Origin: an uncultured Alphaproteobacteria bacterium
GTDB taxonomy: Bacteria > Pseudomonadota > Alphaproteobacteria > CAVTAV01
Assembly: GCA_963732795.1 (NCBI GenBank)
Contig: CAVTAV010000003.1
Span: 66,050-130,049, forward strand
Length of the DNA: 64,000 bases
Direction of reading: 5' to 3'
The notes under the pieces were generated by a model. That model searched no databases. It saw only the letters and a list, made by a program, of their open reading frames with translations, and was not told where the DNA came from. Of the stretch, positions 16,105-64,000 are shown in pieces (the stretch's first letter is position 1; each line of letters begins with the position of its first letter). Position numbers and translations under genes: made by a program.

Positions 16105-16203
16105 GATGCCGCTCCCTCGTGTCGTGTGCGTTTGACGATTGCCTCCCCGGCGGATTTTGCGGATGTTACCCTACAAATCGGAAGAGAGGGGAGAGGTAGC
16201 GGT

Positions 16204-17010
16204 ATGAGCGACAAGCCGGTCGTTGTGACGGTCGAAGAGGGGATCGCGGAGATCCGCCTCAACCGGCCGAACGTGTTGAACGCCGTCTCACGCGAGATGC
16301 TGGGCATGCTGCGCGAGGCGATTGCCGGACTCGCCACCCGCGACGATGTCGGCGTCTGCACCATCACCGGCGAAGGGCGCGCCTTTTGCGCCGGCGCCGA
16401 TCTCACCGATCCGATGATGGGCAACGATCTCCCGCGCGGCCAGCGCGGCGACAATTGCGCCAAGGTCATGGATGCGGAGATCAACGCCTTGGTGCGCGAG
16501 TTCCGCGCGCTCGAACTCCCAAAGCTCGCCATCGTCAACGGCATCACGGCCGGCGGCGGCGTCGGGCTGGCGCTCACCGCCGACATGATCATTGCCGGAC
16601 ATTCCGCGGCGTTCATCGTGCCTTTCGTGCCGAAGCTCGGAATCATTCCCGATCTCGGCGCGACCTGGCATCTGAGCCGCCTTCTGGGGCGTGCTCGCGC
16701 CATCGGCGTCGCGATGCTGGGCGACCCCATCCCCGCGGAGCAGGCGGCCGATTGGGGTTTGATTTGGAAATGCGTCGACGACGACCAGCTCGCCGATGAA
16801 GCCCGTGGCATTGCGATCCGCCTTCGGGACGGCCCGAGACGCGCGCAGGTCGCACTTCCCGATCTGATCGACCAGGCCTTCCTCAACGGCTTCTCCGACC
16901 AGCTCGATGCCGAGCGCGATGTCCAGCGCGTCTTGTGCGAGAGCGAGGATGTCGAGGAAGCCATGGCGGCGTTCAAGGAAAAGCGTGCGCCGCGCTTCAA
17001 AGGGAAATAG
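16204..17010 (+). CDS. Enoyl-CoA hydratase/isomerase (crotonase) family protein
   Basis: ATG at 16204 (MSDKPVVVTVEEGIAEIRLNRPNVLNA). Oxyanion-hole motifs GEGRAFCAGADL and NGITAGGGVGLAL are present. The upstream part of the 445-aa ORF is antisense to the DUF3237 gene. Confidence 0.88.
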   Translation: MSDKPVVVTVEEGIAEIRLNRPNVLNAVSREMLGMLREAIAGLATRDDVGVCTITGEGRAFCAGADLTDPMMGNDLPRGQRGDNCAKVMDAEINALVREFRALELPKLAIVNGITAGGGVGLALTADMIIAGHSAAFIVPFVPKLGIIPDLGATWHLSRLLGRARAIGVAMLGDPIPAEQAADWGLIWKCVDDDQLADEARGIAIRLRDGPRRAQVALPDLIDQAFLNGFSDQLDAERDVQRVLCESEDVEEAMAAFKEKRAPRFKGK

Positions 17011-17017
17011 CGCCCGG

Positions 17018-18556
<1,539 letters not shown>

Positions 18557-18662: not shown

Positions 18663-19676
18663 CTACTCCGGCCAGCCCGAATGCATCTTGTAGGGCGCGC
18701 TGATGACCAGGGCTTCGACCTTGAGGATCTTGCCGTCGCGCACCTTGAACAGCTCGCCGATGATGCTCTCGTAAGGGTGCAGCAGGCGCCCCGGCATCAT
18801 CACCTTGCCGTAACCGGGAACGTCGATGGAGGTCACCGTCCCAGCGTGATCGAAGCAGACGACGCCGAAGACGAGGCCACGCTCGGGGTCGGTCAGGAGG
18901 TAGCGTCGCGGCTGGATGCGGGTGATATAGCGCCAGAAACCGGTGTTGAACTGGTCCTTGCAGGTCATGGCAGAAAGATTGAACGTGCCGTTCTCGGCGC
19001 TGACGCCCGTGCCGTGCGTGGGATTAAGGACCGTCTGCTCGCCGTTCTCGATCCGGATGCATTTATCGTCGAACGGCACGAAGGACCCGGTGCCCTGCTC
19101 GATGCCGTCGAAATATTTGTTGGCGATGTCGATCAAGCCCTGGGCGTCGGTGCGGGTCGACGGATCCTCGACCTCGTCGAAGACCGGTTGGGGAGTCATG
19201 CCGTCCGGGTTGTAGAGCCGCTCGCCCGGCCGGGCCACCAACATCTCGGCTTCGGTGATCATGCGGTCGGCGACCCGCAGGCGCAGGTTCACGACGACCG
19301 GCTCGCCGCTCTCCTTCATTAGCCCGTAAAACACCACCGTGCCGTCGTCGGGCTCCGTTGCGTATATCTTGGTGGTCGGTAGGTCGCTGGCGACGCCCCA
19401 CATGCCGTCATTGAGACCCATCTCGACGCCGTTCTCGGTGTAGCGGACGTCGCTCGCGGTCGGAGCCTGAGAGGAATCATGGGCGACCATCGCCGCGAGG
19501 AACTGGTCGACCATGCCCTTGAGGCAATCGCGGTCGCAGTCCTGAGCGGCAGGGGCGGCGGCAGGCGCCGCCGTCTGTTCGCTGGACTGCTTCGATGAAT
19601 TGCCCGAATCGCATGCCGCCAGGGTCAGGGCGCAAAGGCCCATCGCCGCCGTCAGTCGCACCAAGCCTTCCCGCAT
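18663..19676 (-). CDS. Secreted lipoprotein of unknown function, tandem paralogue 1 of 3
   Basis: 337 aa with lipobox LTLAAC. Conserved family blocks are CDxxCL...MVAHD.S.AP.A..V.YTEN, C.R.ENG and FD..G...KI..IEAL. Confidence 0.7.
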   Translation of the reverse strand: MREGLVRLTAAMGLCALTLAACDSGNSSKQSSEQTAAPAAAPAAQDCDRDCLKGMVDQFLAAMVAHDSSQAPTASDVRYTENGVEMGLNDGMWGVASDLPTTKIYATEPDDGTVVFYGLMKESGEPVVVNLRLRVADRMITEAEMLVARPGERLYNPDGMTPQPVFDEVEDPSTRTDAQGLIDIANKYFDGIEQGTGSFVPFDDKCIRIENGEQTVLNPTHGTGVSAENGTFNLSAMTCKDQFNTGFWRYITRIQPRRYLLTDPERGLVFGVVCFDHAGTVTSIDVPGYGKVMMPGRLLHPYESIIGELFKVRDGKILKVEALVISAPYKMHSGWPE

Positions 19677-19707: not shown

Positions 19708-20706
19708 CTAGTCGCCCCACTTGTCCTTCGTGCCGTAGGGCATGGTCGACAAGGTCGCGGCGATCTGCTTGATCTTGCCGTTCACGACCTTGAAGGACTC
19801 GAGAATGAGCGCGTTGAACGGCCGATGCGCGGCGCCGGTATATTTGTAGGTGCCGAAGCCCGGAATGTCGGTCGAGTCGACATTGCCCGCCTGATTGAAC
19901 ATCACGATCATCGAGACGATGCCGTGCTCCTCGTCGATCGCCGCCAGATGCCGCTGATCGATCTTGGTGATATACCGCCACATCATGCTGTTGATGTTGC
20001 CGGTGCAGCTCATCGCACCGATATTCGGCGCGCCGGGCCGTGCCTTGGCGTCCGGATCGTTGGCGGTCACGGCACCGTTCTCGACCCGGCCGCAATCGTC
20101 CGCGAACGGGACGTAGTCGGCCTTGTTGTCCTGCAGGGCGTCGAAATATTTGTTGGCGTCGTCGATCATGACCTCGCGGGTCGAACGCTGGTCTTGCGGA
20201 ACGACCTCGGCCCAAACCGGATCGGGCGTGACGTCGTAGCTGCCGAAGCCGCCGCCGGAGGAACGCACCACGATCGCCTCGATCTCTGTGATCTTCTGAT
20301 CGTCGACCTTCATGCGCCCGGCGAACCAGACCGGATTGCCGCTCTCCTTCATCACGACATGGAAGGCGAGCTGGCCGAGCATCGGATCGGGAATGACGAG
20401 CTTGTAATTCGTCGGCAGATCGCTCGCCACGCCCCAGATGCCGTCGCCGACTTCGACGACCTGAGCGTTCTCGGTGTACTTCACATTGTCCGCAAGCGGC
20501 GCCTTGCTCGGATCATGGGCGACCATGGCTTCGAGCAGCATATCGAAGTCGCTGGTCAAGCAGGCGGTATCGCAGGCAGCCGGCGCGGCCGGCGCCGTTT
20601 GGTCGGTCGTGTTCTCGGATTGCTCATTGCCGCTCTGGCCGCAGGCGGCGAGGCCGGCGGCGACGAGCGCGCCGAGGATGGCGGTGCGAATGGTTTGGCT
20701 CGACAT
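19708..20706 (-). CDS. Secreted lipoprotein of unknown function, tandem paralogue 2 of 3
   Basis: ATG at 20706 (MSSQTIRTAILGALVAAGLAAC, a lipobox), 332 aa. It shares the conserved blocks of its neighbours. Confidence 0.7.
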   Translation of the reverse strand: MSSQTIRTAILGALVAAGLAACGQSGNEQSENTTDQTAPAAPAACDTACLTSDFDMLLEAMVAHDPSKAPLADNVKYTENAQVVEVGDGIWGVASDLPTNYKLVIPDPMLGQLAFHVVMKESGNPVWFAGRMKVDDQKITEIEAIVVRSSGGGFGSYDVTPDPVWAEVVPQDQRSTREVMIDDANKYFDALQDNKADYVPFADDCGRVENGAVTANDPDAKARPGAPNIGAMSCTGNINSMMWRYITKIDQRHLAAIDEEHGIVSMIVMFNQAGNVDSTDIPGFGTYKYTGAAHRPFNALILESFKVVNGKIKQIAATLSTMPYGTKDKWGD

Positions 20707-20723
20707 GTCTCTGTCCCTTTCTC

Positions 20724-21683
20724 TTACCAGCCCGAGGGCATGCGGTAGGGCACCTGATTGATCAGGGCCTCGATCTGCCGGATCTTGCCACTCTTGATCT
20801 TGAAGATTTCGGCGATCTCGAAGGTCAGCGGCTGGGTGAAGGGCGGGTTGATCGGCACCACTGTGCCGTCCGGCTGGGTGTATTGCTTGGCTTGACCGTT
20901 GTGGTCGAAGAACACCAGCGAGAACACAAGGCCGGTCTCCTTGTCGATCACCGGATAGCGGCGGTCGCGCACGTCCGAGACCAGTACGGAGAAGCCGGTG
21001 TCGAACTGCGCTTTGCATCCCATCTTGGCCATGCCCTGGCCGTTCGGATTGTTCGCGGTGATCGCGCCGTTTTCGCGGCGCTGGCAATCGGGGTCGAACG
21101 GCACGTTGGCGCCGGAATTCTCTGTATCGAGGCCGGTGAAATAGTGGTTCGCGGCCGCCTCCATCTCGTCGCGCGAGACCTGCTCGGAGGGCTTCAGCTT
21201 CTCCATCAGGATCGGCAGCGGCTTGGAGAAGTTAGGTTTGCCCAAGGGGCCGCCATTGCCCGAGGGCCGGCTTACGATCTGCTCTGCCTCGGTGATCTTG
21301 TCGTCGACCACCTTCAGCCGGATCGCGATAATGACCGGGTCTTCATGCTCCTTCATCTGGCCGAGGAAACCGACCTGCTCGCTATCCGTGTCGATGACAT
21401 AGAGGCGATAGGTGGAATCGGCCGAGGCGGTGGCCCACATCGCGTCCTGGAACGTCAGCTCCTGCCCGTTCTCGGTAAATTTCACATTGTCGGCGAAGGG
21501 CGCCATGCTCGGGTCGTGGGCGACCATGGCGGCGGTGTATTTGTCCATCGCGCCCTTGAGGCAGGCCCGGTCGCAGGCCATGTCCGCGGCCCGCGCGGCG
21601 TGCCTAACGCTGAGTAGGACGACGGCGCTTGCTATGAGCGCGAGCGAGACGAATCGGAATCGTTGGGTGACGGTCGTCGGCAT
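20724..21683 (-). CDS. Secreted protein of unknown function, tandem paralogue 3 of 3
   Basis: ATG at 21683 (MPTTVTQRFRFVSLALIASAVVLLSVRHAARA, a Sec signal), 319 aa. Same conserved blocks, including CDRACL and MVAHDPSMAP. Confidence 0.7.
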   Translation of the reverse strand: MPTTVTQRFRFVSLALIASAVVLLSVRHAARAADMACDRACLKGAMDKYTAAMVAHDPSMAPFADNVKFTENGQELTFQDAMWATASADSTYRLYVIDTDSEQVGFLGQMKEHEDPVIIAIRLKVVDDKITEAEQIVSRPSGNGGPLGKPNFSKPLPILMEKLKPSEQVSRDEMEAAANHYFTGLDTENSGANVPFDPDCQRRENGAITANNPNGQGMAKMGCKAQFDTGFSVLVSDVRDRRYPVIDKETGLVFSLVFFDHNGQAKQYTQPDGTVVPINPPFTQPLTFEIAEIFKIKSGKIRQIEALINQVPYRMPSGW

Positions 21684-21820
21684 GAATATAACTCCCCCTT
21701 GGCCGCGATGCGCGACATGAACCCGGCACGGGGAGAGCCGCATGGCCACACCCCAAATTGTGCCCATTGGCTCCTGTTTACCATAATGGGCGGGGATGGT
21801 GAATTCGGAGTTCGGGAAAT

Positions 21821-22669
21821 CTAGCGTTTCAGGCCCGCATAGAGCTCCAGCAACTCATCGACCCCCGAAAACACCACATGGGCGCGTTTCGAAGGCGGCT
21901 GGGTTGCGAAATCCTCGTCCGTCGAAATCCCGGTGGTGACGCCGATCGCCAGCGATTTGCCGCTGTGAGCCATGGGGATCTCCAGCGCCGGATCGTCGCC
22001 GACCACAACGAGGTCTCGTGTCGGGATTCTCATGCGCCGGCCAATGCTGCGGAGCGCCTCGGGCGAGGGTTTACCGAGAACCTTGACCTTGCAGCGGGTA
22101 ATCTGGGTGATCGCGCCGACGATGGCGACCGAGGTTCCGAGCGCGCGGCCATTGGCGGTGGCGAAAAAGGGCGCTAGCGAGCTGGTATAGAGCTTGGCGC
22201 CCTGCCAGATCGCCCGGCAGGCGACCTCGATATGATCCATGGTGAATTCGCGGAACCAGCCGACAAAGATCGCCTCGGCCATCGCGCCCTCGCGCGGCTC
22301 GACCACCTCGATCCCTGCGTCCGCAATCGGCCCGTAGACGCCTTCTCCGCCGAGCACGATGGCCCGCTTGACGCCACGCCGCGAAAGGTAATCGGCGGCG
22401 GCGCTCGAGGGCGTCATAATCTCGTCGTCCTGAAGCGGAAAGCCGAGCTTGCGCAGGATGACGCCGTAGGCCGCCGGCGGGCGGGTCGTGCCGTTGGTAA
22501 AGCTGACGACGGGAACGCCACGCTCGTTTAGCAGCTTTACAAGCTCCAATGCGCCCGGCAGCGGCGATAGCCCCTTGTTCTCCTTGTTGCCGAGAACCAG
22601 CGTGCCGTCCATGTCGAACACGAAGCCGCGCGCGGCTTTGAGGCGTTTAATAAGGTCTTGTTTTCTCAT
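21821..22669 (-). CDS. HAD-superfamily hydrolase, subfamily IIA
   Basis: 282 aa with the HAD motif I FDMDGTL, then FTNGTT, and a C-terminal VVGDD motif. Confidence 0.85.
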   Translation of the reverse strand: MRKQDLIKRLKAARGFVFDMDGTLVLGNKENKGLSPLPGALELVKLLNERGVPVVSFTNGTTRPPAAYGVILRKLGFPLQDDEIMTPSSAAADYLSRRGVKRAIVLGGEGVYGPIADAGIEVVEPREGAMAEAIFVGWFREFTMDHIEVACRAIWQGAKLYTSSLAPFFATANGRALGTSVAIVGAITQITRCKVKVLGKPSPEALRSIGRRMRIPTRDLVVVGDDPALEIPMAHSGKSLAIGVTTGISTDEDFATQPPSKRAHVVFSGVDELLELYAGLKR

Positions 22670-22692
22670 CTATTTCTCAGACTTCAGTATGG

Positions 22693-22754
22693 TCGTCCCC
22701 GCGAAAGCGGGAATCTCAAGACGGCGTCTGGAGTCCCGCTTTCGCGGGAATGAC
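22693..22754. repeat. REP-type palindromic element, family 1
   Basis: GTCGTCCCCGCGAAAGCGGGAATC...GAGTCCCGCTTTCGCGGGAATGAC. It overlaps the last codons of the biotin carboxylase gene and encodes ...VIPAKAGLQTPS. Confidence 0.85.
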
Positions 22755-24098
22755 GTCGGTGGCGGCGAGAAACTTGGGGAAGAACGAGGTCGTTACCCCG
22801 CCTTCGGCGAACTCAGGATCGGCCATCAGGCCCGCATGGAGATCGACATTCGTCGCGATGCCCTCGATCCGGCAACTCGCCAGCGCCTCTCGCATGCGGG
22901 CGAGCGCGGCCGGGCGGTCCGCGCCCCAGGTGATGATCTTGCCGATGAGCGAATCGTAGAACGGCGGCACCATCTGGCCCGATTCGATATGGGTGTCGAC
23001 GCGGATGCCCTCGCCGGCGGGCCAGAGGGCGCGGGTGACCCTTCCGGGGCTCGGGCGGAAGTCATGCGCCGTGTCCTCGGCGTTGATGCGGCATTCAATG
23101 GCGTGGCCGGAGAAGGCGATGTCGCTTTGGGCCATCCGCAGGCCCTGGCCGTCCGCGATGGCGATCTGCTCGGCGATGAGATCGACGCCGGTGATCGCCT
23201 CGGTCACGGGATGCTCGACCTGGATGCGGGCGTTCATTTCGAGGAAATAGAACTCGTCGCGGTCGACATCGACCAGGAACTCGACCGTTCCGGCGCCGCG
23301 ATAGGCGAGATGCCGGCTGAAGGCAACGGCGGAATCCAGAATGCGCCGGTGCAGCGCGTCCGAAAGATTAGGTGCGAGGGCTTCCTCGACGAGCTTTTGG
23401 TAGCGCCGCTGGATCGAGCAGTCGCGGGTGCCGAGATGCACAACGTCTTCGCCGTCGCCGAGAACCTGCACCTCAACATGGCGGCCGCGCTCGACATAGC
23501 GCTCGAGATAGACGCGGGAGTCCTTGAAGGCGGCCTCGGCCTCGGCCATGGCGAGCTCGATCTGATGGGCGAGCTTGGCCGGCTCATGCACCAGCTTCAT
23601 GCCGCGCCCGCCGCCGCCGCCGACCGCCTTGATGAGGATGGGATAGCCGATCTCTTCGGCGAGCGCCTTGGCTTCATCCGCTTCACTCACCGACCCGCCG
23701 GGAACGACCGGCACCTTGGCGGCGACAGCGTTCTCTCTCGCGCGAAGCTTGTCGCCGACCGCCGAGAGCTGCTGGATGGTCGGGCCGATGAAAGTGATAC
23801 CGGCCTTGTCGCATTCCTCGGCGAGCATGGCGTTCTCGGAGAGGAAGCCGTAGCCGGGATGCACGGCATCCGCGCCGCGCGCCTTGGCGGCGGAGACGAC
23901 CGCGCGGGGATCGAGGTAGCTCTGGCCCGGCGGCGGCGGGCCGATACAGATGACGTCGTCGGCCAGATGGGCGGGGACAGAGGCCATATCCGCTTCGGAA
24001 GCCGCCAGCACGCTGTCGATGCCGAGATCACGGCAGGTGCCGATGATGCGGCCGGCGATCTCGCCGCGATTGGCGATCAGAATGCGCCGGATACTCAT
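22716..24098 (-). CDS. accC: Biotin carboxylase (AccC-type, divergent; possibly dedicated to the local cluster)
   Basis: ATG at 24098 (MSIRRILIANRGEIA), 460 aa. ATP-grasp motifs HPGYGFLSEN, KAVGGGGGRGMK and EMNARIQVEHPVTE are present. ATGA overlap with the BCCP stop. Confidence 0.9.
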   Translation of the reverse strand: MSIRRILIANRGEIAGRIIGTCRDLGIDSVLAASEADMASVPAHLADDVICIGPPPPGQSYLDPRAVVSAAKARGADAVHPGYGFLSENAMLAEECDKAGITFIGPTIQQLSAVGDKLRARENAVAAKVPVVPGGSVSEADEAKALAEEIGYPILIKAVGGGGGRGMKLVHEPAKLAHQIELAMAEAEAAFKDSRVYLERYVERGRHVEVQVLGDGEDVVHLGTRDCSIQRRYQKLVEEALAPNLSDALHRRILDSAVAFSRHLAYRGAGTVEFLVDVDRDEFYFLEMNARIQVEHPVTEAITGVDLIAEQIAIADGQGLRMAQSDIAFSGHAIECRINAEDTAHDFRPSPGRVTRALWPAGEGIRVDTHIESGQMVPPFYDSLIGKIITWGADRPAALARMREALASCRIEGIATNVDLHAGLMADPEFAEGGVTTSFFPKFLAATDVIPAKAGLQTPS

Positions 24099-24565
24099 TT
24101 TTCGGCCGGCTCGACCCGCATCAGGACATGGCCGTATTCGACGAACTGGCCGTTCTCGGCGCAAATCTCCGTTACCGTGCCTTTGACGCCGGCATAGACC
24201 GAGTTCATCAGTTTCATCGTCTCGATGATGCCGACGACCGTCTCTTCCTCAACCTTCGAGCCGACTTCGACGAAAGGCGGCGCGCCGGGCTTGGGCGCGC
24301 GGTAGAAGGTGCCGAGAAGCGGCGGCATGATGTCGAGCTTGCCGTCCTCGGAGGGCGCGGGCTTCGCCGGCTTGGCGGCTTCGGCGGGCGCGGCGGCGGG
24401 TTGGTCGTGGCCGACCGTGCTGCGTTCCTCGGTCCAGACCGACGGTCCGGCGCCGGAGCGGCGCAAGGTAAGCGTGAATTTGTCCGTCTCGATCCGCATC
24501 TCGTCATAGGACGAGGAATCGAGCAGGCGGAGGATCTCCCGGACGTCGTCGTTGGTGAGGTTCAT
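24095..24565 (-). CDS. accB: Biotin carboxyl carrier protein
   Basis: 156 aa with an AccB-like N-domain, an Ala/Pro linker, and the biotinyl-lysine motif IETMKLMN. Confidence 0.9.
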   Translation of the reverse strand: MNLTNDDVREILRLLDSSSYDEMRIETDKFTLTLRRSGAGPSVWTEERSTVGHDQPAAAPAEAAKPAKPAPSEDGKLDIMPPLLGTFYRAPKPGAPPFVEVGSKVEEETVVGIIETMKLMNSVYAGVKGTVTEICAENGQFVEYGHVLMRVEPAEK

Positions 24566-24577
24566 GTGCCGCCCGAG

Positions 24578-24646
24578 TCGTCGTCCCCGCGGAAGCGGGG
24601 ACTTAGAGACGGTGCCTGGATTCCCGGTTTCGCGGGAATGACGACG
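24578..24646. repeat. REP-type palindromic element, family 1
   Basis: GTCGTCGTCCCCGCGGAAGCGGGGAC...GGATTCCCGGTTTCGCGGGAATGACGAC. Same orientation and architecture as 22693-22754. It sits between the PpsB-like stop and the accB start. Confidence 0.85.
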
Positions 24647-24668
24647 GGCGTGCTTGCGGCCATCCGGA

Positions 24669-25722
24669 TCATCGCTTTCCGAAGGCGGCGAAGACGTGGT
24701 CCATCGCGGTCGATTTGGTGTCCGCGACGGGCTTCGCGTCCTTGTTGGCCCAGACGGTTTCAGGCCGGCTTTGCAGCAGGTAGATCGCGCCGGACTGGTC
24801 GACCGCCCATTCGATGTCCTGGGGGCTCCCGTAATGGCGCTCGATTCCCTTGCCGATCTCGGCGAGCTTGCCGAGCTCTTCGTCCGATACGCAAGCGACG
24901 TTCCGCTGGTCCTCTTCGACTTCGATATCGCGGACGCCGCCCTTTTCGACATCGGGCACATGCTGGCGGGTCTTGTCGGAGATCGTGCGGCCGCGGATCT
25001 CGCCGGTGACCTTGTTCACGAGGAACGTATCCGGCGTTACCTCCCCGCTGACGATCGCCGAGCCCAAGCCCCAGCTTCCCTCGATCGCGATCATGGAGCG
25101 GTCGCCGGTGGTGGGGCTGCGGGTGAACATCACGCCCGAGGCGCGCGACATCACCATGCGCTGCACGACCACGCCCATGGCGATCTGGTCCTCTGGCAAA
25201 TCGAGGCGCAGCCGGTAGCTTACGGATTCGGTCGAATAGAGGCTCGCCCAGCAATCGCGGATCGACTGGATGACATTGTCGGCGCCCTGAACCCAGAGAT
25301 AAGTGTCCTGCAGGCCTGCAAAGCTCGCCTCGGCGCTGTCCTCGCTCGTCGCGCTGGAGCGCACCGCGACTGGCGCGCGTGCGTCGCCCTCGCAAAGCGT
25401 CGCATGGGCCTCGCCGACCGCGATCGCCAGAATCCTCCGGGAACGGCATGGTACGCACCCGCTCGCGGATCTCGGCGCTGCCGGCCTTGATCGCCTCGGT
25501 GCTCTCGCCGCGCAACGCCTGGATGGCCTTGCGGATTGCCCCCTCGGCGTCGTTCGCTTTCAGAAACCGTTCGAAGGCTGACGTCGTGACCACGAAGCCG
25601 GGCGGCACGCTGATGCCGGCGCCGGTCAGCTCGCCGAGGCTCGCGCCTTTGCCGCCGACCGACGGGCGGTCGGTGATCTTGATGTCCTTGAACCAGCGGA
25701 GAAACTCGGCACTGTCACTCAT
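24669..25722 (-). CDS. PEP/pyruvate-binding (PPDK_N, ATP-grasp) domain protein, PpsB-like subunit of a split dikinase; one frame break
   Basis: The N-terminus is VGGKGASLGELTGAGISVPPGFVVT. After the break near 25432 come VAVRSSATSEDSAEASFAGLQDTY, MVMSRASGVMFT and DIEWAVD. The span equals 3n+1. Confidence 0.82.
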
Positions 25723-25729
25723 GGGGCGC

Positions 25730-27554
25730 TCAATCCAGAATCGTCACGACGCCGTCATTGCCGTTCACCCGGAGGCGCTGGCCGGTCTTGATCAGCTTGG
25801 TCGCCTTGCCGGTGCCGACGACGGCGGGCATGCCATACTCCCGAGCAACGATCGCGGCATGGGACATGGTCCCGCCGATGTCGGAGACGGCCGCCTTGAT
25901 CTTGCCGAAGACCGGCCCCCAGCTTGGGTTGGTGACCGGACAGACCAGGATTTCGCCTTCCAGGATCGCGCCGATATCGTTGACGTTCTCCAGCACTCGC
26001 GCGACGCCTTCGACGATGCCGGGCGAAGCCGCGAAGCCCTGAATTTCGTTTTCGCTCGTTTCATCCGCCGGCTTTGACCAGGCGTGCAAGGTTTCCGACG
26101 TGATGCCCCAGAGCATCTGCACGGCCGGATCGGCGATGGTCTCCGGCATCGGCCCGAGCGCGGGCGGGGCGTTCCAGGCCTTCAGCTTCTCGTGGATCTT
26201 TTTGCGCTTCTTCACGATCGGCGGCCAGTGCTGTGCGCCGACCGACGGTGACCCCGCCGCCCAGGACATCATGGCGTCGCCGAGCGCGAGATCGACCTCG
26301 GTGTGATGGAGATGGAACACGTCCTCGCCATCCTCCAGCAATCCATGCTTGGCGAGAAGCGCGCCGAATTCGCGGATCTTGTTGAAGAACAGGGTCGTGA
26401 ACCAGTGCTCGCAATAGAATTTGTGGTTCTCGACATAGGGGAACACGAGGTGGCAAAGGCCGAGCATCTGGTCGAAGGTCGCCTTGTCCTCGTCGGTCGG
26501 GAGCAGGCCACGATATTCGTCGATGATGCGCTGGCGCTCCTCGCGCAGCTTCTCGGTCGGGCGCTCCAGGCTGATGCCCTTCTTCACCTGATCGATATAG
26601 CGGGGCAGCGCGGCGAAAGGCACCGAAAGATCGTCGTTCCAACTCCGATGATTGTGGTGGAAGCCGTCGCCGGTGGAGATGTGGAACCAGGGCTCGCGGG
26701 ACTTGTCGAGCTCGTTCAGCCATTCCTGGCCGCGCGCGCCCTTGGCCTTGATCGCAGCCATGGTTTCGTCGGGGCCCTTACCTTCCTTGAAGCAGTCGTC
26801 GACGCCGCAATCCACCGCGACTTTAGCCAACCGTTTCAACTCGTCGTCGGGCCGGAACATCAGCACTTCGATGCCGGCGACCATCCGCGCGACCATCTGG
26901 TCCGGGATTTCCGGAAAGGCCTTCTTGCAGAACTCGAAAAAGACCAAATAGGCGCCGTAGCCGAGCATCAGGAATTCGAAGTGGTAGTGCCACATCTTCG
27001 AATAGGATTCGACGGTGCGATGATAGGCCTCGCGGACGAAATGGTTTTCGGCGATGCCGCGCGCGTTCTGGACCGTCGAATTCCGGCTCGTATTCGTCGA
27101 GCGAGGGGACCCGGATCGCGTTGATCTCGTCCAGGAGGGCGCGCATCTTGACCTCCCATTTCCCGTAGAGGTCGTTCCAATGCTCGTAGTAATGGCCGGC
27201 GCGGGGCTGGAAATAGGCCAGCCGCTCCTCGATCCGCTTGGGGTCGGTGACCGCATTGGCGGTGATATAGACGCGGCCGTTGACGATGCGGTGGTCGATG
27301 CCTAGGGCGGTCGGGAAGGCATAGACGCGGCTCGTGACCGCGCCCATGGCCTGATAGGGCACTTCCGCCGTGATGACGTCGAAGGCCGTTATGGGCTCCG
27401 GGAAGTGCATCGAATTGTAAAACCAGAACCGCTGGTCGTCCTCCTCCCGGAACCGGGTGAAGTACGGATACATGGACTGCCATCCCTCGGTTCCGGCCAC
27501 ATCGGTGATCTCGGAGGGGAGGGGAAACGGATTTTTCTTCGTGGTGCCGCTCAT
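25730..27554 (-). CDS. PEP-utilising mobile-domain protein, PpsA-like subunit of a split dikinase; one frame break
   Basis: The ATG at 27554 is preceded by GGAGAG. A ~500-aa N-region of unassigned fold is followed by a swivel phosphohistidine domain (ILVCPVTNPSWGPVF...GGTMSHAAIVAREYGMPAVVG). The break lies near 27085. The span equals 3n+1. Confidence 0.8.
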
Positions 27555-27843
27555 TCGCGCGCTCTCTCCGGTCAAAGCTTCCCGAAAATGTCCCGCTTGC
27601 GCGCAGGATTCGTGTCGTTGGGCCCCGGCGGGGGACCCCCTGTTATAGTATAGATACCGCCGATTTGAAGGGGGTAGTTGAGGCCGCCGAGGCCTCTTGC
27701 CTGGAACCGAACACCCCTCGCTGTCGTTTACCTGTCATCACCAGCCCTAACGCCGCGCCGAGGCCGCACGGATCGCCCAGCCCTGGAGAGAGGCCGGCGA
27801 CCGCAGGTGAAGTGCGGCGTCTTCACAAGGAGGAGGTTGAAAA

Positions 27844-28296
27844 ATGACAAACGTTCCCGCCAAGTCCCTGTGCTTACCGCTTACCGTCGCCCTGCTCGGC
27901 GCGGCCTGTCTTGGCGGCTGCGCGACGAGCACCCATGTGGTCCAGCAATCGCGTCCCAGCGTGACCTATCACTTCGACAGCGATGAGGGTCTGGTGGAAG
28001 CCACTAACAAGGCCCAGCGCTATTGCGAGCAATACAATGCCTGGCCGGAACAGGTGGGCACCGACGTCGATGGCGACGAAGTGACGTTCGTCTGTGACCG
28101 GGACGAAGCCTATGAGCCGGAGCCCGGCTGGACCGACCGCCATGTCGAGTTCACTTTCGCCAGCCACCACGATCTGGTCGAGGCGACCGAGCGCGCCGAG
28201 GGCTATTGCGCCCGCTACGACGCCGAGCCGACCGATCTTCATGTTCACGTGAACCCGGACGGCTCGCGCACCGCGACCTTCGATTGTGAGGCGTAA
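27844..28296 (+). CDS. Lipoprotein of unknown function with an internal duplication
   Basis: A strong SD (AAGGAGGAGG) precedes the start. The lipobox is ACLGGC. Two ~45-aa repeats each contain (D/H)xLVEAT.(K/R)A..YC..Y...P...F.C. Confidence 0.75.
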   Translation: MTNVPAKSLCLPLTVALLGAACLGGCATSTHVVQQSRPSVTYHFDSDEGLVEATNKAQRYCEQYNAWPEQVGTDVDGDEVTFVCDRDEAYEPEPGWTDRHVEFTFASHHDLVEATERAEGYCARYDAEPTDLHVHVNPDGSRTATFDCEA

Positions 28297-28341
28297 GCGT
28301 CATCGCAAAGGCGCTGCGGTCCTCGCAGTGACTGTGTCGGT

Positions 28342-29354
28342 CTAATTCGCCCAGGGATCGACCAGGATCTTGCACTGGCTTGTGCGATGGCGCAGGCCTT
28401 CGAAGGCGGGAGGCATGGCGGCCAGAGTCCACGGTTTCCGTAATCATCGCATGCGGTTCGACATGGCCGGCATCGAGTGTATCGATGGCGACCTCGAATT
28501 CCTTGACGCCGTAGAAGGCCGAGGGCTGGATCACCGCCGACTTCTGGATGAGCTGGAACGGGTTGATCGGTTCGGGCACGGTGCACAGGCCGACGAGCAC
28601 GACCGTTCCGCGCGGGCGGACCTGCTCGATGGCCTGGATGATCAGGCCGGGCGCGCCGACGCATTCGAACACGATATCGGGCGCACCACCCAACGCGTGG
28701 TTGATGTCCTCGTTTTGGTTTTCCGAGACTGTGATGAATTCGTCCGCGCCCATGGTGCGGGCCAGAGGCTCGGGCAGACGGTCGAGATTGGTGACCGCGA
28801 TCTTGCCCGCGCCGAGATGCCGGGCCCAGAAGATCACGCCGAGCCCGATCGGCCCCGCGCCGATCACCAAAACGCGGGAGCCCGCCTTGATATTGGCCAG
28901 ATTGGCGGCCCGGAGGCTTACCGCCAGAGGTTCAACCAGCGCACCGTCGTCCATCGAGACGGTCTTGGGCAGCCGGATGCATTGATGGGTCTCGGCGACG
29001 GAGAATTGCGCATAGCCGCCGCCGTCCAGCTTGAATTTCTCGCACCAGGACGGCTCGCCCATGAGGCACGGTCCGCAATGGCCGCAGCCATGGGTCGGCA
29101 TGACGGCGACGGTATCGCCCTTCTTGATCCCTTCGACGCCCTTGCCGATGTCGATGACCTCGCCGGCATATTCATGGCCGAGCACGTCGCCCCTTGTGCG
29201 CGTGATAGGCGGGATCGACCGTGGCATGGAGATCGCTGCCGCAAATGCCGCAACGCTCGACTTTGACCATGACCTCGTTCGGTCCCGGCGTCGGGTCGGC
29301 GACGTCCTCGACTTCGAGGGGTTGGTTCAGCGCATTGAAGACGGCGGCTTTCAC
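28342..29354 (-). CDS. Zn-dependent medium-chain alcohol dehydrogenase; two frame breaks
   Basis: Segments are MKAAVFNALNQPLEVEDV...CGICGSDLH, then GHEYAGEV...GCGHCGPCLMG...VIGAGPIGLG, then AMPPAFEGLRHRTSQCKILVDPWAN. Breaks lie near 29190 and 28432. The stop TAG is at 28342-28344. Confidence 0.85.
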
Positions 29355-29365
29355 GGGACCGGTTC

Positions 29366-29607
29366 CTAGACGTTCACGTCGACGACGCAGACCACGTCGC
29401 CGACCTTGGCGTCCTCGTCCTCCGGCACGCGGATTTCGAGCAGCTTGCCGTTGGCGGTCGCCTGCACCTCTTCGGTGACCTTTTCGGTCTCGAACTCGTA
29501 AAGCGTCTCGCCTTCCTTGAAGTCGTCACCGGGCTGCTTGTGCCACTTCACGATGGTGGCTTCCTGCATGTTCATCCCGATGCGGGCGAGCTTGAGATTA
29601 CTTTCAT
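29366..29607 (-). CDS. Free-standing lipoyl (biotin/lipoyl attachment) domain protein, ~80 aa; start region ambiguous
   Basis: NLKLARIGMNMQEATIVKWHKQPGDDFKEGETLYEFETEKV...VGDVVCVVD is a single lipoyl domain with the lysine in ETEK. The ATG at 29607 is out of frame by one base. The in-frame ATG (MNMQ, at about 29575) would cut off the first strand. Confidence 0.7.
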
Positions 29608-29625
29608 CGGCGGGGCGACCTCGAC

Positions 29626-30597
29626 TTACTTTCCCAGAGTGGCGTTGACGGCGGCGATGACCTTGTCCGGATTCGGCAGGACGGCGGCCTCGGCATTCGG
29701 CGCATAGGGCACGAATACGTCCGGCGTGGTGACCCGCTTGACCGGCGCTTTCAGCATGTCGAAGCCCCGGTCGGCGACCACGGCGGCAATATGGCTCGCG
29801 GCGCTGCACCGGTCGCGCGCCTCGTCCACGATCACGAGCCGGCCGGTCTTCTTGACCGAGCTCAGGATGCCGTCCTCGTCCAGGGGCACGAGGGTGCGGG
29901 GATCGAGCACCTCGGCATTGACGCCTTCTTCGGCCAGGGCATCGGCTGCATCGAGGGCCGTGCGCACCGTCGTGCCGATGCCGACGATCGTGACGTCGGT
30001 CCCCTCGCGGAGGATATTGGCCTTGCCGAACGGCACGGTGTGATCGCCATCCGGCACGTCCCAACGCTCGCCGCCGCGGCCGACCGCCAGGAGGAAGATC
30101 GTCGGATTGTCGCCGCGGATCGCGGTCTTGAGGAGGCCCTTGGCGTCGCCCGGCGTCGCGGGGACTGCGACATTGAGACCGCCCAGATTCATGAACAGCG
30201 GGTGCGGCGAATCGGAATGCTGCGAGGCGTTGCTGCCGCCCGCGCCGTAGCCCGCCATCACCGTCACGGGCATCCTCATCTGGCCGCCGGTCATGAGGCG
30301 GAGCTTCGCCATCTGATTGGCGATGCCGTCGAAGCCCATATAGGTGAAGTTCGAGAACATCATGTGGAAGATCACGCGATGGCCGCCCGCCGCCGCGCCG
30401 ATCGACATGCCGGTGAGCGCGTTCTCGGAAATCGGCGTGTTGCGGATGCGGTTGAGGCCGAATTTATCGACGAGGCCGCGGGTGTCGCCGAACATGCTGA
30501 TCTCGACGTCCTCGCCGAACAGGATGACCTTCTCGTCGCGCTCCATCTCCTCGAACAGCGCTTCGTTCACGGCCTGGATATAGCGTTTCTTTGCCAT
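29626..30597 (-). CDS. TPP-dependent 2-oxoacid/acetoin dehydrogenase E1 component, beta subunit
   Basis: 323 aa with the E1-beta pattern (ILFGEDV, RIRNTPISENALTGMSIGAA, C-terminal transketolase-like domain). Confidence 0.9.
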   Translation of the reverse strand: MAKKRYIQAVNEALFEEMERDEKVILFGEDVEISMFGDTRGLVDKFGLNRIRNTPISENALTGMSIGAAAGGHRVIFHMMFSNFTYMGFDGIANQMAKLRLMTGGQMRMPVTVMAGYGAGGSNASQHSDSPHPLFMNLGGLNVAVPATPGDAKGLLKTAIRGDNPTIFLLAVGRGGERWDVPDGDHTVPFGKANILREGTDVTIVGIGTTVRTALDAADALAEEGVNAEVLDPRTLVPLDEDGILSSVKKTGRLVIVDEARDRCSAASHIAAVVADRGFDMLKAPVKRVTTPDVFVPYAPNAEAAVLPNPDKVIAAVNATLGK

Positions 30598-30608
30598 TGT
30601 GCTCCCCC

Positions 30609-31607
30609 TTACGGCCGGTGATCCGAGAACATCACTTTGAACGCGAGGTCGATATCGGCCGGCGGGCTCGACGCCGCGAACTCTGCCGCGGCCTCCACGG
30701 TGTCGGCGATGCGCTTCTCGATCGCGGAGACGTCACCGGCATTGGCCGAATCTTCCAGCAGCTTCTTTTTTAGCCGCTCGACCGGGCACTTCTTGATCCA
30801 GCTCTCGATCTCGGCATCCTCGCGGTATTTCTGGCCGGCGGTGAAGCGCTCCTCGGCCTCGATATGGCCGCGCCAGCGATAGGTGTGGGCCTCGATGAAG
30901 CTCGGCCCGCCGTCCTTGCGCGCCCGCTCGATGGATTCCCCGGCCGCTTGCCAAACTTCCGAGACGTCGTTGCCGTCCACGTCATAGGTCGGCATGCCGA
31001 AGGCCTTCGCCCGGTCGATCAGCTTGCCGGCGGTGACGGTAGAGGAGGGGGTCAATTCGGAGAAGGTATTGTTCTCGCAGACATAGACCACCGGTAATTC
31101 CCAGCGGGCCGCGATGTTGAGCAATTCCATGAACGCCCCTTCGTTCGCCGCGCCGTCGCCGAAGAAGCAGACCGCCACCCGGCCGTCCTGATTGAGCTTG
31201 GCGGAATAGCCCGCGCCGGTGGCGATGCCGAGGCCCGCGCCGACGATGCCGTTCGCGCCGAGAATGCCCTTGGAGACGTCGGCGACATGCATCGAGCCGC
31301 CCATGCCTTGGCAGATGCCGGTCTTCTTGCCCCAAATCTCCGCCATCATGGCCTTCGGCTCGCCGCCCTTGGCGAGAAAGTGGCCATGGCCGCGATGGGT
31401 CGAGGTGATCATGTCGGAGTCGGTCAGGTGGTTGCAGACGCCCGCGGCGATCGCTTCCTGGCCGATATAGAGATGCACCGCGCCGGGCAGGTTGCCGGCG
31501 GCGGCATCGTCGCGCAGGCGCTCCTCCATCTTGCGGATGAGCAGCATGCGCTCATAGAGCGCCTTGAGCGTCTCCACGCTCGGACCGAAATTCGCCCGAT
31601 CATTCAT
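30609..31607 (-). CDS. TPP-dependent 2-oxoacid/acetoin dehydrogenase E1 component, alpha subunit
   Basis: 332 aa. The TPP-binding motif is GDGAANEGAFMELLNIAARWELPVVYVCENN. Also present are THRGHGH and GSMH. Confidence 0.9.
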   Translation of the reverse strand: MNDRANFGPSVETLKALYERMLLIRKMEERLRDDAAAGNLPGAVHLYIGQEAIAAGVCNHLTDSDMITSTHRGHGHFLAKGGEPKAMMAEIWGKKTGICQGMGGSMHVADVSKGILGANGIVGAGLGIATGAGYSAKLNQDGRVAVCFFGDGAANEGAFMELLNIAARWELPVVYVCENNTFSELTPSSTVTAGKLIDRAKAFGMPTYDVDGNDVSEVWQAAGESIERARKDGGPSFIEAHTYRWRGHIEAEERFTAGQKYREDAEIESWIKKCPVERLKKKLLEDSANAGDVSAIEKRIADTVEAAAEFAASSPPADIDLAFKVMFSDHRP

Positions 31608-31883
31608 ATCAAACGGACCCCCGGATTGCGGTTGCGCGTCAGCGGCAAATCGGCGCGGTGTCGATCGCGATCAACATATTGCGTCGAAATGGAAATTTGC
31701 CGCGACGACATTGCGGTGCTGCGACAATCGTCGCGTAAAATATTGTTATCGAAAGCGGCGCTGCGGTACAATCGAAAATGTGGTCGCCGCGGGGCCCTCC
31801 CGCGGCTTCAAGCCAATCCGGTGGCCTGCCGCAGCACCGTCGCCGGTCCGCCGATCCATCGTCAACCTGCTCCGGGGGGTGCC

Positions 31884-33956
31884 ATGCGCCGACTGGCCCT
31901 GATCTCTTTTGCGCTCATTCTTGCGGCCTGTTCTCAGCAGCAGCCGGTGTCGGAAACGACGCCGACGGGCGCCCCGCCCGGCCAAGTGGACGGCGCGCGG
32001 ATCATGGCGGCCGACAAGGAGCCGGGGAATTGGATGAGCTACGGCCGGACCTATGGCGAGGATCATTTCAGCCCCTTGGACAAGATCACCGCGGACAACG
32101 CGAAGGATCTCGGCCTCGCCTGGTATTTCGACTTTCCCCATGCCCGCGGCCTCGAGGTGACGCCGATCGTGGTCGATGGCGTGATGTATGTGACGGGCAA
32201 CAACAACAAGGTTTACGCCCTCGACGCCAAGACCGGTAAGCAGATCTGGGCCTACGATCCCGAGGTCCGCACCGATTGGGACCGGTATGCCTGCTGCGGC
32301 TCGATCAATCGCGGCGTGGCGGTCTGGAAGGGCAAGGTCTATGAGGGGACGCTCGACGGCCGGCTGATCGCGGTGGATGCAAAGACCGGCAAGCTGGCCT
32401 GGGAAACTCAGACCACGCCGGACAACGAGCCCTATTCGATTACCGGGGCGCCGCGCATCATCAAGGACAAGGTCGTCATCGGCGCGGGCGGCGCGGAGTT
32501 CGGCGTGCGCGGCTATATCGCGGCCTATGACGCCGAGACCGGCAAACAGGTCTGGCGCTTCTACACGGTGCCCGGCGACCCTTCTAAGCCGTTCGAGAAC
32601 AAGGCCATGGAGACGGCTGCCAAGACCTGGACCGGCGAATGGTGGAAGCAGGGCGGCGGCGGGACGGTATGGGACTCGATGTCCTACGACCCGGATCTCA
32701 ACCTGATCTATTTCGGCACCGGCAACGGCTCGGAATGGGCCCGCAAGCTCAGGAGCCCCGAGGGCGGCGACAATCTGTTCCTCGCCTCGATCGTCGCAAT
32801 CAACGCCGATACCGGCGACTATGTCTGGCATTACCAGGAAGTCCCCGGCGACCAATGGGACTACGACGCCTGCCAGCAGATCGTGCTTGCGGATCTGACG
32901 ATCGACGGTAAGCCCCGCAAAGTACTGATGCAGGCGGCGAAGGACGGTTATTTCTACGTCCTCGACCGCACCAACGGCCAGTTCATTTCGGCCACGCCCT
33001 TCGTCAAGACGACCTGGGCCGAAAGCTTCGATCCGAAGACCGGCCGGCCGACCATCGCCAAAAGCGCGCTCTACGATACGGACGAGGCATCGGTCGTCTG
33101 GCCCGGTCCGTTCGGCGCCCATGACTGGCAGTCCATGTCGTTCGATCCCAAGAGCGGGCTGGTCTATTTCTCGGCTCAGGATCAGGGCTTCGCCTACAGC
33201 TACGATCCGAAGTGGCAGCACAAGCCGATGCAGTGGAACACCACGCAGAACGCCGATGCCAAGCAGCCGCCCGAGGCCAAGGAACTCACCTATCGCGGCT
33301 ATCTCTATGCCTGGGATCCGGTGGCCGGAAAGCCCGCCTGGAAGGTCGAGTACGACGATATGTGGAACGGCGGCGCGCTGGCCACTGCCGGAGGCATCGT
33401 CGCCGAAGGCACCGCCGACGGGCGCTTCATCGTCTATCGCGCGGATAACGGGGAGAAACTATGGGAGAAGCCGGTCCAGACCGCGGTCATGGCGGGGCCG
33501 ATCAGCTATATGGTCGATGGCGAGCAGTATATCGCCGTCGCGGCCGGCTGGGGCGGCTCGGTGCCGCTCTTTGGCGGCGGCATCACGCCGATCCATAGCG
33601 GCTCGAACCGCATCCTGGTCTATAAGCTTGGCGGCACCGTAACGCTTCCGCCCAAGCCCCGGCAGGCCGCCATCCCCGCTCAGCCCCCGGTCAACGGCAC
33701 ACCCGAGGACGTCGCTCATGGCGAGTCCCTCTACGATCAGTACTGCCAGAACTGCCACGGCTTGAACGTGATATCGGGCGGCATGATCCCCGATCTCCGC
33801 CAGCTACCCCACGAGGATCACCAGTTCTTCGCCAGCATCGTGCTGAACGGCACGAAGTCCCGCCAGGGAATGCCGCCCTTCGGCGACGTCCTGAGCGAAT
33901 CCGACGCCCAGGACATCCACAATTTCATCCTGAAGCGGGCGTCGGAGTCGAATTGA
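31884..33956 (+). CDS. Quinohemoprotein PQQ-dependent alcohol dehydrogenase (type II-like), lipoprotein signal
   Basis: ATG at 31884 (MRRLALISFALILAAC). PQQ propeller with repeated W-motifs and the vicinal Cys pair YACCGS. The C-terminal cytochrome c domain carries CQNCHG. The part of the 889-aa ORF before 31884 is non-coding. Confidence 0.9.
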   Translation: MRRLALISFALILAACSQQQPVSETTPTGAPPGQVDGARIMAADKEPGNWMSYGRTYGEDHFSPLDKITADNAKDLGLAWYFDFPHARGLEVTPIVVDGVMYVTGNNNKVYALDAKTGKQIWAYDPEVRTDWDRYACCGSINRGVAVWKGKVYEGTLDGRLIAVDAKTGKLAWETQTTPDNEPYSITGAPRIIKDKVVIGAGGAEFGVRGYIAAYDAETGKQVWRFYTVPGDPSKPFENKAMETAAKTWTGEWWKQGGGGTVWDSMSYDPDLNLIYFGTGNGSEWARKLRSPEGGDNLFLASIVAINADTGDYVWHYQEVPGDQWDYDACQQIVLADLTIDGKPRKVLMQAAKDGYFYVLDRTNGQFISATPFVKTTWAESFDPKTGRPTIAKSALYDTDEASVVWPGPFGAHDWQSMSFDPKSGLVYFSAQDQGFAYSYDPKWQHKPMQWNTTQNADAKQPPEAKELTYRGYLYAWDPVAGKPAWKVEYDDMWNGGALATAGGIVAEGTADGRFIVYRADNGEKLWEKPVQTAVMAGPISYMVDGEQYIAVAAGWGGSVPLFGGGITPIHSGSNRILVYKLGGTVTLPPKPRQAAIPAQPPVNGTPEDVAHGESLYDQYCQNCHGLNVISGGMIPDLRQLPHEDHQFFASIVLNGTKSRQGMPPFGDVLSESDAQDIHNFILKRASESN

Positions 33957-44986: not shown

Positions 44987-45028
44987 ATGCCCCCCAAATG
45001 TGTCGCTCCCCGCGCTGTGGCGGTGTTC

Positions 45029-55773: not shown

Positions 55774-55864
55774 AATCCGGTCATAAAGATGATATGAGGT
55801 CGGGCCGCCGCGCGAGCGTCGCGTCGGTCCTTTCGAAACGCTTCTGAGGGGTGAGGATCAAACC

Positions 55865-57056
<1,192 letters not shown>

Positions 57057-61016: not shown

Positions 61017-64000
<2,984 letters not shown>

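Follow-up and report, generated by a model that had tools for sequence, protein, structure and literature searches.

A carboxyltransferase-less Hpe/Acv-like gene block beside an acetoin-dehydrogenase-like unit in an uncultured alphaproteobacterium

In a 64-kb stretch of DNA from an uncultured alphaproteobacterium (hereafter the window), nine minus-strand genes between positions 21821 and 31607 had been taken, in a reading from the sequence alone, for the parts of one undescribed pathway. We consider it probable that they represent two catabolic units, a kinase/carboxylase/phosphatase block of the Hpe/Acv type and a unit resembling acetoin dehydrogenase, and that the frameshifts seen in four of the genes are sequence errors. 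Both units would be part of a chromosomal island for lignin-derived aromatics and alcohols. Gene models were drawn from the listing of open reading frames (ORFs) and from Pfam scans, to which NCBIfam and PDB sequence matches were added. Pfam confirmed all nine domain assignments of the sequence-only reading at their minus-strand positions. The nine genes, and the small gene that lies between the two units, are the following:

30609..31607, minus strand: E1 alpha of the thiamine pyrophosphate (TPP)-dependent acetoin/pyruvate-dehydrogenase type; intact; Pfam E1_dh 1.1e-70
29626..30597, minus strand: E1 beta; intact; Pfam Transket_pyr and Transketolase_C
29366..29607, minus strand: stand-alone lipoyl-domain protein (Lip) of about 80 amino acids (aa); Pfam Biotin_lipoyl 2.1e-14
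28342..29354, minus strand: Zn-dependent alcohol dehydrogenase (ADH) of the medium-chain dehydrogenase/reductase (MDR) type; Pfam ADH_N and ADH_zinc_N; split over three frames
27844..28296, plus strand: small lipoprotein gene, an ORF with a lipobox, between the two units
25730..27554, minus strand: HpeH/AcvA-like dikinase component with substrate-binding and swivel-His domains, 607 aa when intact; Pfam PEP-utilizers 5.1e-23
24669..25722, minus strand: HpeI/AcvB-like ATP-grasp dikinase component, 350 aa when intact; Pfam PPDK_N, profile positions 2-80 and 105-325 over two ORFs
24095..24565, minus strand: HpeC/AcvC-like biotin carboxyl carrier protein (BCCP), 156 aa; Pfam Biotin_lipoyl; NCBIfam TIGR00531, 128.8 bits, over the cutoff
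22716..24098, minus strand: biotin carboxylase (BC) in the hpeB/acvD position, 460 aa; Pfam Biotin_carb_N, CPSase_L_D2 and Biotin_carb_C; NCBIfam PRK08591, 614 bits
21821..22669, minus strand: HpeD/AcvF-like, NagD-type phosphatase of the haloacid dehalogenase class IIA (HAD-IIA), 282 aa; Pfam Hydrolase_6, Hydrolase and Hydrolase_like

The block from 27554 to 21821 is, as predicted from homology and synteny, an Hpe/Acv-type module. Its model is the hpeHICBADEF cluster of Rhodococcus rhodochrous GD02, which encodes the hydroxyphenylethanone pathway (Dexter et al. 2022, PMC9618137). There, HpeHI phosphorylates 4-hydroxyacetophenone and acetovanillone, HpeCBA carboxylates the phosphorylated compounds only, and HpeD, which among characterised proteins is most closely related to NagD, removes the phosphate from the carboxylated product; HpeE (AcsA-like) and HpeF (CouO-like) were proposed, unassayed, to complete the conversion to 4-hydroxybenzoate or vanillate (PMC9618137). 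In vitro assays established all three activities, those of kinase, carboxylase and phosphatase (PMC9618137; PMC12167813), and the acvABCDEF genes of Sphingobium sp. SYK-6 are homologous to and syntenic with hpeHICBAD (PMC9618137). Because this published pathway combines the same steps, it accounts for the dikinase, BC/BCCP and phosphatase genes standing side by side. The sequence-only reading had expected these three to cooperate in the phosphorylation and carboxylation of a substrate with a ketone group, and this expectation was thereby borne out. Its other proposals fared less well: the pathway is already characterised as hpeHICBAD/acvABCDEF, a gene order that five of the nine genes share, its substrates are phenolic aryl methyl ketones rather than small aliphatic alcohols or ketones, and this PpsAB-like kinase has a biotin carboxylase as its natural partner instead of a UbiD-type enzyme.

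The GD02 genes and the window share the order and sizes of the dikinase pair, BCCP, BC and NagD-like phosphatase, as well as a conserved swivel-His motif. The hpeH-I-C-B-A-D products have masses of 71.2, 40.6, 17.4, 49.3, 57.4 and 30.2 kDa (PMC9618137), and the window products of 607, 350, 156, 460 and 282 aa fit this series, the carboxyltransferase (CT) excepted. Unlike the GD02 cluster, the window has no gene for the ~57-kDa subunit between BC and phosphatase and neither the HpeE coenzyme A (CoA) ligase nor the HpeF hydrolase, and it carries repetitive extragenic palindromic (REP) elements at two junctions. The acv operon of SYK-6, which acts with vceAB (Higuchi et al. 2022, bioRxiv 10.1101/2022.04.28.489975), likewise differs from the window in containing a CT gene, at the acvE position; in SYK-6 the downstream CoA-dependent steps fall not to HpeE/F homologues but to other genes elsewhere, and the same may hold for the window. 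Table 1 of PMC9618137 lists hpeB as the carboxyltransferase and hpeA as the biotin carboxylase; the masses (49.3 and 57.4 kDa) and all loci that we examined fit the opposite assignment.

The individual proteins agree with this picture. The HpeH-like protein scored 818 bits against NCBIfam PRK08296.1-5, and its ORF was 100% identical to the intact 607-aa protein P0001 across the aligned 88% of the query ORF; more than 7,500 homologues of this PEP-utilizers protein, of ~607 aa each, are known. Its swivel-His motif, GGTMSHAAIVAR, agrees with the consensus given in PMC12167813. The best PDB match of the ATP-grasp protein was 9goj (5.5e-80, 331 residues), which we take to be the HpeI structure, the HpeI paper citing the code 9GOJ once (PMC12167813). 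The two dikinase domains, PEP-utilizers and PPDK_N, are encoded by separate adjoining genes, each of which needed one indel correction. The BCCP keeps the biotinylation motif ETMKLM, and the source annotation of the HAD-IIA phosphatase is ‘NagD protein’.

Among the species representatives of GTDB, 567 confirmed stretches encode an HpeH-like relative, and the best 80 of these loci were analysed. The recurring order was PEP-utilizers (607 aa), PPDK_N (~350 aa), BCCP, BC, a ~495-aa protein and HAD, and the kinase-kinase-BCCP-BC-(CT)-HAD arrangement was kept with short gaps in dozens of genomes from four phyla. The ~495-aa protein, found between BC and HAD in 57 related loci, contains HMGL-like and PYC_OADA domains. 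Together these domains mark a CT of the pyruvate-carboxylase type. The clusters were flanked by an ACAS_N/AMP-binding AcsA-like CoA ligase of the HpeE type (35 loci), an Amidohydro_2 protein of the HpeF type (19 loci) or a Zn-ADH (26 loci). A plasmid of Rhizobium leguminosarum carries the full eight-gene hpeHICBADEF-like order under generic annotation (‘PEP-utilizing enzyme’, ‘acetoacetate--CoA ligase’), and its HpeH-like protein is 57% identical to that of the window. Culturable carriers include Rhizobium leguminosarum BT01 (plasmid pRlBT01c) and Geodermatophilus sabuli. The closest copies of the block are those of Steroidobacteraceae (Gammaproteobacteria; HpeH 73%), while the host is an alphaproteobacterium, which suggests that the block was acquired horizontally; its base composition is not deviant.

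Genes within each unit are closely spaced. Gaps measure 11 nucleotides (nt) between E1 alpha and E1 beta, 18 nt between E1 beta and Lip, 11 nt between Lip and ADH, and 7 nt between the hpeH- and hpeI-like genes. The hpeI-like gene and BCCP are 103 nt apart with a REP element in between, BCCP and BC overlap by 4 nt, and BC and HAD are separated by 46 nt with a second REP copy. Of these features, the sequence-only reading had correctly described the 103-nt REP gap, the 4-nt overlap and the opposite-strand lipoprotein gene and had missed the 46-nt gap with its REP copy. The nine genes do not form the tightly packed intact set that it described, since four are split by indels and the lipoprotein gene parts the array into at least two transcription units. 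This lipoprotein gene is resident, with orthologues beside ADH in relatives (L003, L095, L175, L176; L numbers denote the loci compared). A promoter and terminator scan of the window performed no better than on shuffled sequence, and an Rfam scan of the window returned tRNAs only and no riboswitch.

As the sequence-only reading had stated, the window encodes no CT, catalytic E2, E3 or UbiD/UbiX partner (tblastn with the HpeA-type CT from L025; Pfam scans of nearly all other long ORFs). The block thus fails one defining feature of its family, the CT gene, and we file it as a variant rather than as a full member. BC runs straight to HAD also in the near-identical L001 and in L005, L007, L009 and L092; in the latter four loci, all five ORFs are intact at 63-73% identity. 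Metagenome-assembled genomes of Steroidobacteraceae, such as GCA_035501955.1, are among the carriers of CT-less clusters. In neighbour-joining trees of HpeH and BC, CT-bearing clusters (L008, L093, L094, L010) are interspersed among the CT-less ones. Therefore, the CT gene has been lost from the cluster more than once, and the idea of a single loss event was rejected. Distances to an outgroup are no greater for BC and BCCP from CT-less clusters than for their counterparts in CT-bearing ones. Because BC and BCCP stay under constraint, the simplest reading is that the CT is supplied from elsewhere in the genome. Two substitutes were considered and rejected: the DUF8021 proteins encoded downstream or the hyp161/166 proteins as a novel cytoplasmic CT, on account of their signal peptides or lipoboxes, and E1-Lip as a replacement for the CT, since L093, L141 and L162 hold both CT and E1-Lip.

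In the window sequence, five single-base indels in total interrupt the reading frames of four of the nine genes. Alignment to intact orthologues placed a 1-nt deletion in Lip after codon 3 (~29597), which puts the ATG out of frame. In ADH, indels lie at ~29190 and ~28425, and intact orthologues matched by tblastn in three collinear pieces in frames -3, -1 and -2; the second indel is a G duplicated at 28429 relative to L003, the sole near-identical contig that reaches ADH. Compared with near-identical contigs, the HpeH-like gene has a 1-nt insertion at 27079 and the HpeI-like gene one at 25431. Four metagenome contigs from different samples (~99% identical) carry intact dikinase genes, and Lip and ADH are intact in related species, where the 79-80-aa Lip orthologues begin MKVNLKLARIG.

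Genes outside the cluster are affected in the same way. The tuf gene (55860-57056) is frameshifted, reading ‘SALKAL’ and then ‘EGDKSEIG’ in another frame, and rpoB (61017-64000) is broken by a like frameshift. For the GT1, GT2 and DUF1588 (DUF1588/PSCyt3) genes, each Pfam profile is split over overlapping ORFs, and a second pyrroloquinoline quinone (PQQ) dehydrogenase is probably frameshifted too; beyond tuf and rpoB, non-cluster frameshift sites lie at ~14080, ~41163, ~44628 and ~48417. Intact proteins of the window, including the exact E1 beta, are on record from a metagenome-assembled genome (MAG) contig of an uncultured alphaproteobacterium; an exact look-up of the E1 alpha protein returned no record. 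Over the whole cluster, the window and L001 (98.8% identical) differ at 51 codons synonymously and at 11 nonsynonymously, with 14 and 0 such differences in the HpeH-like gene and 25 and 7 in BC. Because like indels hit tuf and rpoB, and because near-identical contigs and relatives carry intact copies, the five cluster frameshifts are most likely assembly errors and the genes intact in the organism. Reading the frameshifts as marks of pseudogenes was rejected in view of the same damage to tuf and rpoB. The window comes from an indel-prone assembly, and any ‘pseudogene’ call within it is unsafe.

The second unit, judged from its predicted products, resembles acoA-acoB-acoC-bdh minus the catalytic half of AcoC. 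E1 alpha scored below the NCBIfam equivalog cutoff for pyruvate dehydrogenase E1 alpha, and its best PDB match was the human pyruvate dehydrogenase E1 alpha (2.8e-43). The closest NCBIfam match of Lip was the N-terminal lipoyl domain of AcoC (NF011457); the lysine of its ETEKV motif is present, and the 80-aa protein ends at a stop codon at 29366 with no fused E2 catalytic domain. PDB neighbours of ADH (sorbitol dehydrogenase, ketose reductase and (R,R)-butanediol dehydrogenase) place it in the polyol/butanediol branch. With the AcoA/AcoB/AcoC(/AcoL) system and its butanediol dehydrogenase, the window shares a heterotetramer-type E1 alpha/beta, an AcoC-like lipoyl domain and an adjoining butanediol/polyol MDR dehydrogenase. 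It differs in that the lipoyl domain stands alone (80 aa) without the AcoC catalytic domain, no E3 is present, E1 alpha falls under the equivalog cutoffs, and the unit is kept with lignin-aromatic genes, not with aco regulators. Neither an E2 catalytic domain nor an E3 of the Pyr_redox_dim type turned up when nearly all long ORFs of the window were scanned with Pfam.

To place this unit among its relatives, we gathered E1 alpha homologues of 60-88% identity from metagenomes (80 loci). E1 alpha, E1 beta and a ~80-aa Lip formed an uninterrupted triad without a fused E2 in 49 of them, and the gene calls of L005, L087, L088 and L175 gave the same result. Directly upstream of the triad, 21 loci encode an AP_endonuc_2 protein; other frequent partners are a small exported protein, a short-chain dehydrogenase/reductase (SDR), aldehyde dehydrogenases, an HpeE-like ligase and a 376-aa Amidohydro_2 protein. 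Homologous units adjoin lignin-catabolic genes, namely those for beta-etherase-type glutathione S-transferases, LigD-like SDRs, RPE65 dioxygenases, SnoaL proteins and VanA. The literature yielded no paper tying the E1/lipoyl unit to lignin ketone catabolism, and searches for dikinase/biotin carboxylase/lipoyl or BCCP/acetoin dehydrogenase combinations returned nothing relevant.

The two units are found together in some genomes and apart in most. In several arrangements, at least four besides that of the window, no more than 10 kb separates E1a-E1b-Lip from hpe-like genes. The window-type arrangement recurs in L095 (E1 alpha 87% identical), a contig that spans only the E1a-E1b-Lip-ADH-lipoprotein side; a convergent arrangement occurs in the Steroidobacteraceae loci L005, L100 and L102, a same-strand one in L007, and one behind a TonB receptor, with a CT present, in L093. 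In the peat-soil contigs L141, L144 and L162, RPE65, a double SnoaL_2, E1a-E1b-Lip and hpeHICBAD are co-directional, with a divergent MarR gene. No tighter E1/Hpe linkage was seen, and the array hints at a connection with lignin dimers of the stilbene or diarylpropane type. Further, BCCP-BC is joined to DUF8021, AP_endonuc_2 and E1a-E1b-Lip without a CT in L087, L125 and L160; L160 keeps PPDK_N, and no kinase or phosphatase genes were detected at the BCCP-BC loci of L087 and L125.

Conversely, E1 is missing from the 10 kb around about 75 of the 80 HpeH loci, and hpe genes are missing from most E1 loci. A collinear relative (L175/L176; ~80% nucleotide identity, 3.08-Mb contig) lacks the hpe block altogether. 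Its order is PQQ-ADH, E1a-E1b-Lip-glyoxalase-ADH-TonB receptor, lipoprotein, two DUF8021 genes and CoA ligase-enoyl-CoA hydratase (ECH), so that the five-gene hpe-like block appears as a ~6-kb indel (window 21600-27950 versus 16326-16811 of L175). The earlier view of a single unit thus fails, L175 keeping E1a-E1b-Lip-ADH without the block; the idea that the E1/lipoyl unit is related to the block gains some support from the several independent arrangements in which the two adjoin. We read the units as two modules that tend to be collected in the same catabolic islands, not as one machine. Lignin-derived aryl ketones are probably the substrate class of both.

In the proposed scheme, the HpeH-like and HpeI-like dikinase would phosphorylate, at the expense of ATP, the phenolic hydroxyl of a 4-hydroxyaryl methyl ketone such as 4-hydroxyacetophenone or acetovanillone. 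BC would load CO2 onto BCCP, and a pyruvate-carboxylase-type CT, presumably encoded elsewhere in the genome, would transfer it to the acetyl methyl group. Subsequently, the NagD-like HAD phosphatase would strip the phosphate, giving a hydroxyaryl beta-ketopropionate. On the side of the second unit, ADH may form an acyloin or diketone by oxidising a vicinal diol or secondary alcohol, and the TPP enzyme E1 may cleave this product with passage of the acyl group to the free lipoyl protein; housekeeping E2 and E3 would complete the lipoyl cycle.

Several points weigh against this scheme. With no trace of a CT gene in the window, the complete Hpe reaction can only be presumed for this organism, and HpeE- and HpeF-type genes were likewise not found in the 64 kb by tblastn. 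HpeH, CreH and PpsA are mutually ~45% identical (PMC12167813), so that the substrate assignment rests on gene context and not on sequence identity. For the E1/lipoyl family, we only infer the acyloin-cleavage role. Additionally, E1a-E1b-Lip stands directly upstream of and co-oriented with hpeHICBAD in the peat-soil contigs, and the coupling of the two units could be tighter than we assume.

One alternative is that the block is a decaying Hpe-type remnant, which has lost its CT, accumulates frameshifts and is non-functional in this genome. The missing CT gene, the REP element at the junction, the frameshifts in both kinase genes of the window and the variable presence of the block among relatives would all fit. 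We nevertheless regard decay as unlikely, since like frameshifts occur in tuf, rpoB and other unrelated genes, unbroken kinase genes are present in the four near-identical contigs, which stem from different samples, synonymous changes dominate the comparison with L001, and the CT-less L005, L007, L009 and L092 keep five intact ORFs at unchanged evolutionary rates. A dikinase of the phenol (PpsAB) or 4-alkylphenol (CreHI) branch, with only incidental adjacency of BC and BCCP, is the explanation to which we give least credence. In its favour, PpsA, CreH and HpeH are about equally alike (~45%). Among the known systems, PpsABC with PpcABCD of Thauera aromatica has a homologous split dikinase and shares the logic of phosphorylating a phenol before carboxylation. 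In the Pps/Ppc system, however, a UbiD-family enzyme carboxylates the ring with release of phosphate, whereas the window encodes a biotin-dependent carboxylase and a separate phosphatase. UbiD, UbiX and PpsC were absent from the Pfam scans of the window and from the related loci inspected, and neither a UbiD-type carboxylase nor CreJEF-type genes turned up in the vicinity. The gene order conserved in dozens of genomes of four phyla, and the 57% identity of the window protein to the kinase of a complete hpeHICBADEF-like cluster, argue against this branch as well.

The nine products could also form one undescribed ATP-dependent pathway for a small alcohol- or ketone-derived substrate that needs no classical CT, as the sequence-only reading had it. 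Consistent with this are the lack of CT, E2 and E3 in the window, the co-occurrence of E1a-E1b-Lip and hpe-like genes in several arrangements, the CT-less union of BCCP-BC with AP_endonuc_2-E1a-E1b-Lip in L087, L125 and L160, and the unrelaxed BC and BCCP of CT-less clusters. Against it stand the characterised Hpe/Acv system, which fully accounts for five of the nine genes, the opposite-strand gene that interrupts the array, the indel that the hpe block forms when compared with L175, and the lack of linkage between E1 and hpe genes at most loci, including about 75 of 80 for HpeH. The CT-bearing L093, L141 and L162 also have E1-Lip next door, and E1-Lip therefore does not replace the CT. We hold a single pathway to be very unlikely. 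Slightly less improbable, and still unlikely, is a broader proposal: that the E1a-E1b-Lip triad, often with an isomerase-like AP_endonuc_2 protein or a butanediol-type ADH, is an undescribed TPP/lipoyl module cleaving lignin-derived aryl acyloins or 1,2-diketones, that it forms one pathway with the Hpe-type kinase/carboxylase, and that in CT-less clusters carboxybiotin is used by a non-canonical acceptor site. We therefore retain the reading of two catabolic units with errors in the sequence.

The surroundings of the two units contain further features of interest:

24575..24645, minus strand: REP-type double hairpin inside the 103-nt gap between the hpeI-like gene and BCCP
22690..22754, minus strand: second REP copy at the BC/HAD junction, overlapping the last ~12 codons of BC
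31881..33956, plus strand: periplasmic quinohemoprotein (PQQ and cytochrome c) alcohol dehydrogenase, divergent from E1 alpha; PQQ 2.7e-88, Cytochrome_CBB3
16907..18556, plus strand: AMP-forming acyl-CoA synthetase, Pfam AMP-binding and AMP-binding_C, preceded by an enoyl-CoA hydratase gene (pair at ~16100-18556)
20724-21683, 19708-20718 and 18663-19676, minus strand: three paralogous exported DUF8021 (PF26061) lipoproteins, downstream of the phosphatase gene

The REP element GTCATTCCCGCGAAAGCGGGAATCCAG is the first arm of a two-hairpin unit and occurs at 7908-7934 (plus strand), 22728-22754 (minus strand) and 24616-24642 (minus strand). A pattern search gave these three copies in the window against 0 expected by chance; two of the three lie within the hpe-like block, and the copy at the BC/HAD junction occupies the exact site of the ~495-aa carboxyltransferase gene in canonical clusters. 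The CoA ligase/ECH pair is unrelated to HpeE/F and could be a candidate for CoA activation of an aromatic acid; its orthologous pair in L175 is annotated AMP-binding and ECH_1. PQQ-ADH genes recur near hpe-like and E1 loci, and a second quinohemoprotein alcohol dehydrogenase is encoded at 42916-45028 (minus strand).

The DUF8021 genes are 32-45% identical (tblastn) to PF26061-annotated genes of L087, and their products have signal peptides and lipoboxes. By collinearity, two of the three are resident, being present in L175 too. The paralogues share a CDxxCL...MVAHDP motif; they gave no match in the local Pfam library and no PDB sequence match. Members of the family lie between BCCP-BC and AP_endonuc_2-E1a-E1b-Lip in L087, L125, L130 and L154. 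At 454-2502 (plus strand), the window also contains a fused cytochrome b/c1 gene.

Hpe clusters have been described as rare among isolates: only five genomes were reported to have complete syntenic clusters (PMC9618137), and a survey of 17,510 representative genomes gave 25 clusters with colocalised genes (PMC12624787). In our scan, by contrast, homologous clusters occurred in hundreds of uncultured soil lineages, mostly represented by soil MAGs, among them Acidobacteriota, Actinomycetota, Steroidobacteraceae and Alphaproteobacteria. Industrial depolymerisation of lignin yields acetovanillone and 4-hydroxyacetophenone among its main products, and work is under way to engineer production strains with the Hpe/Acv pathway. 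The apparent pattern of orphan modules in the window is mostly accounted for by a pathway published in 2022. What remains new is a recurrent CT-less form of the cluster that is under constraint, together with an uncharacterised E1/free-lipoyl module in lignin-catabolic islands, and these could extend the known pathway.

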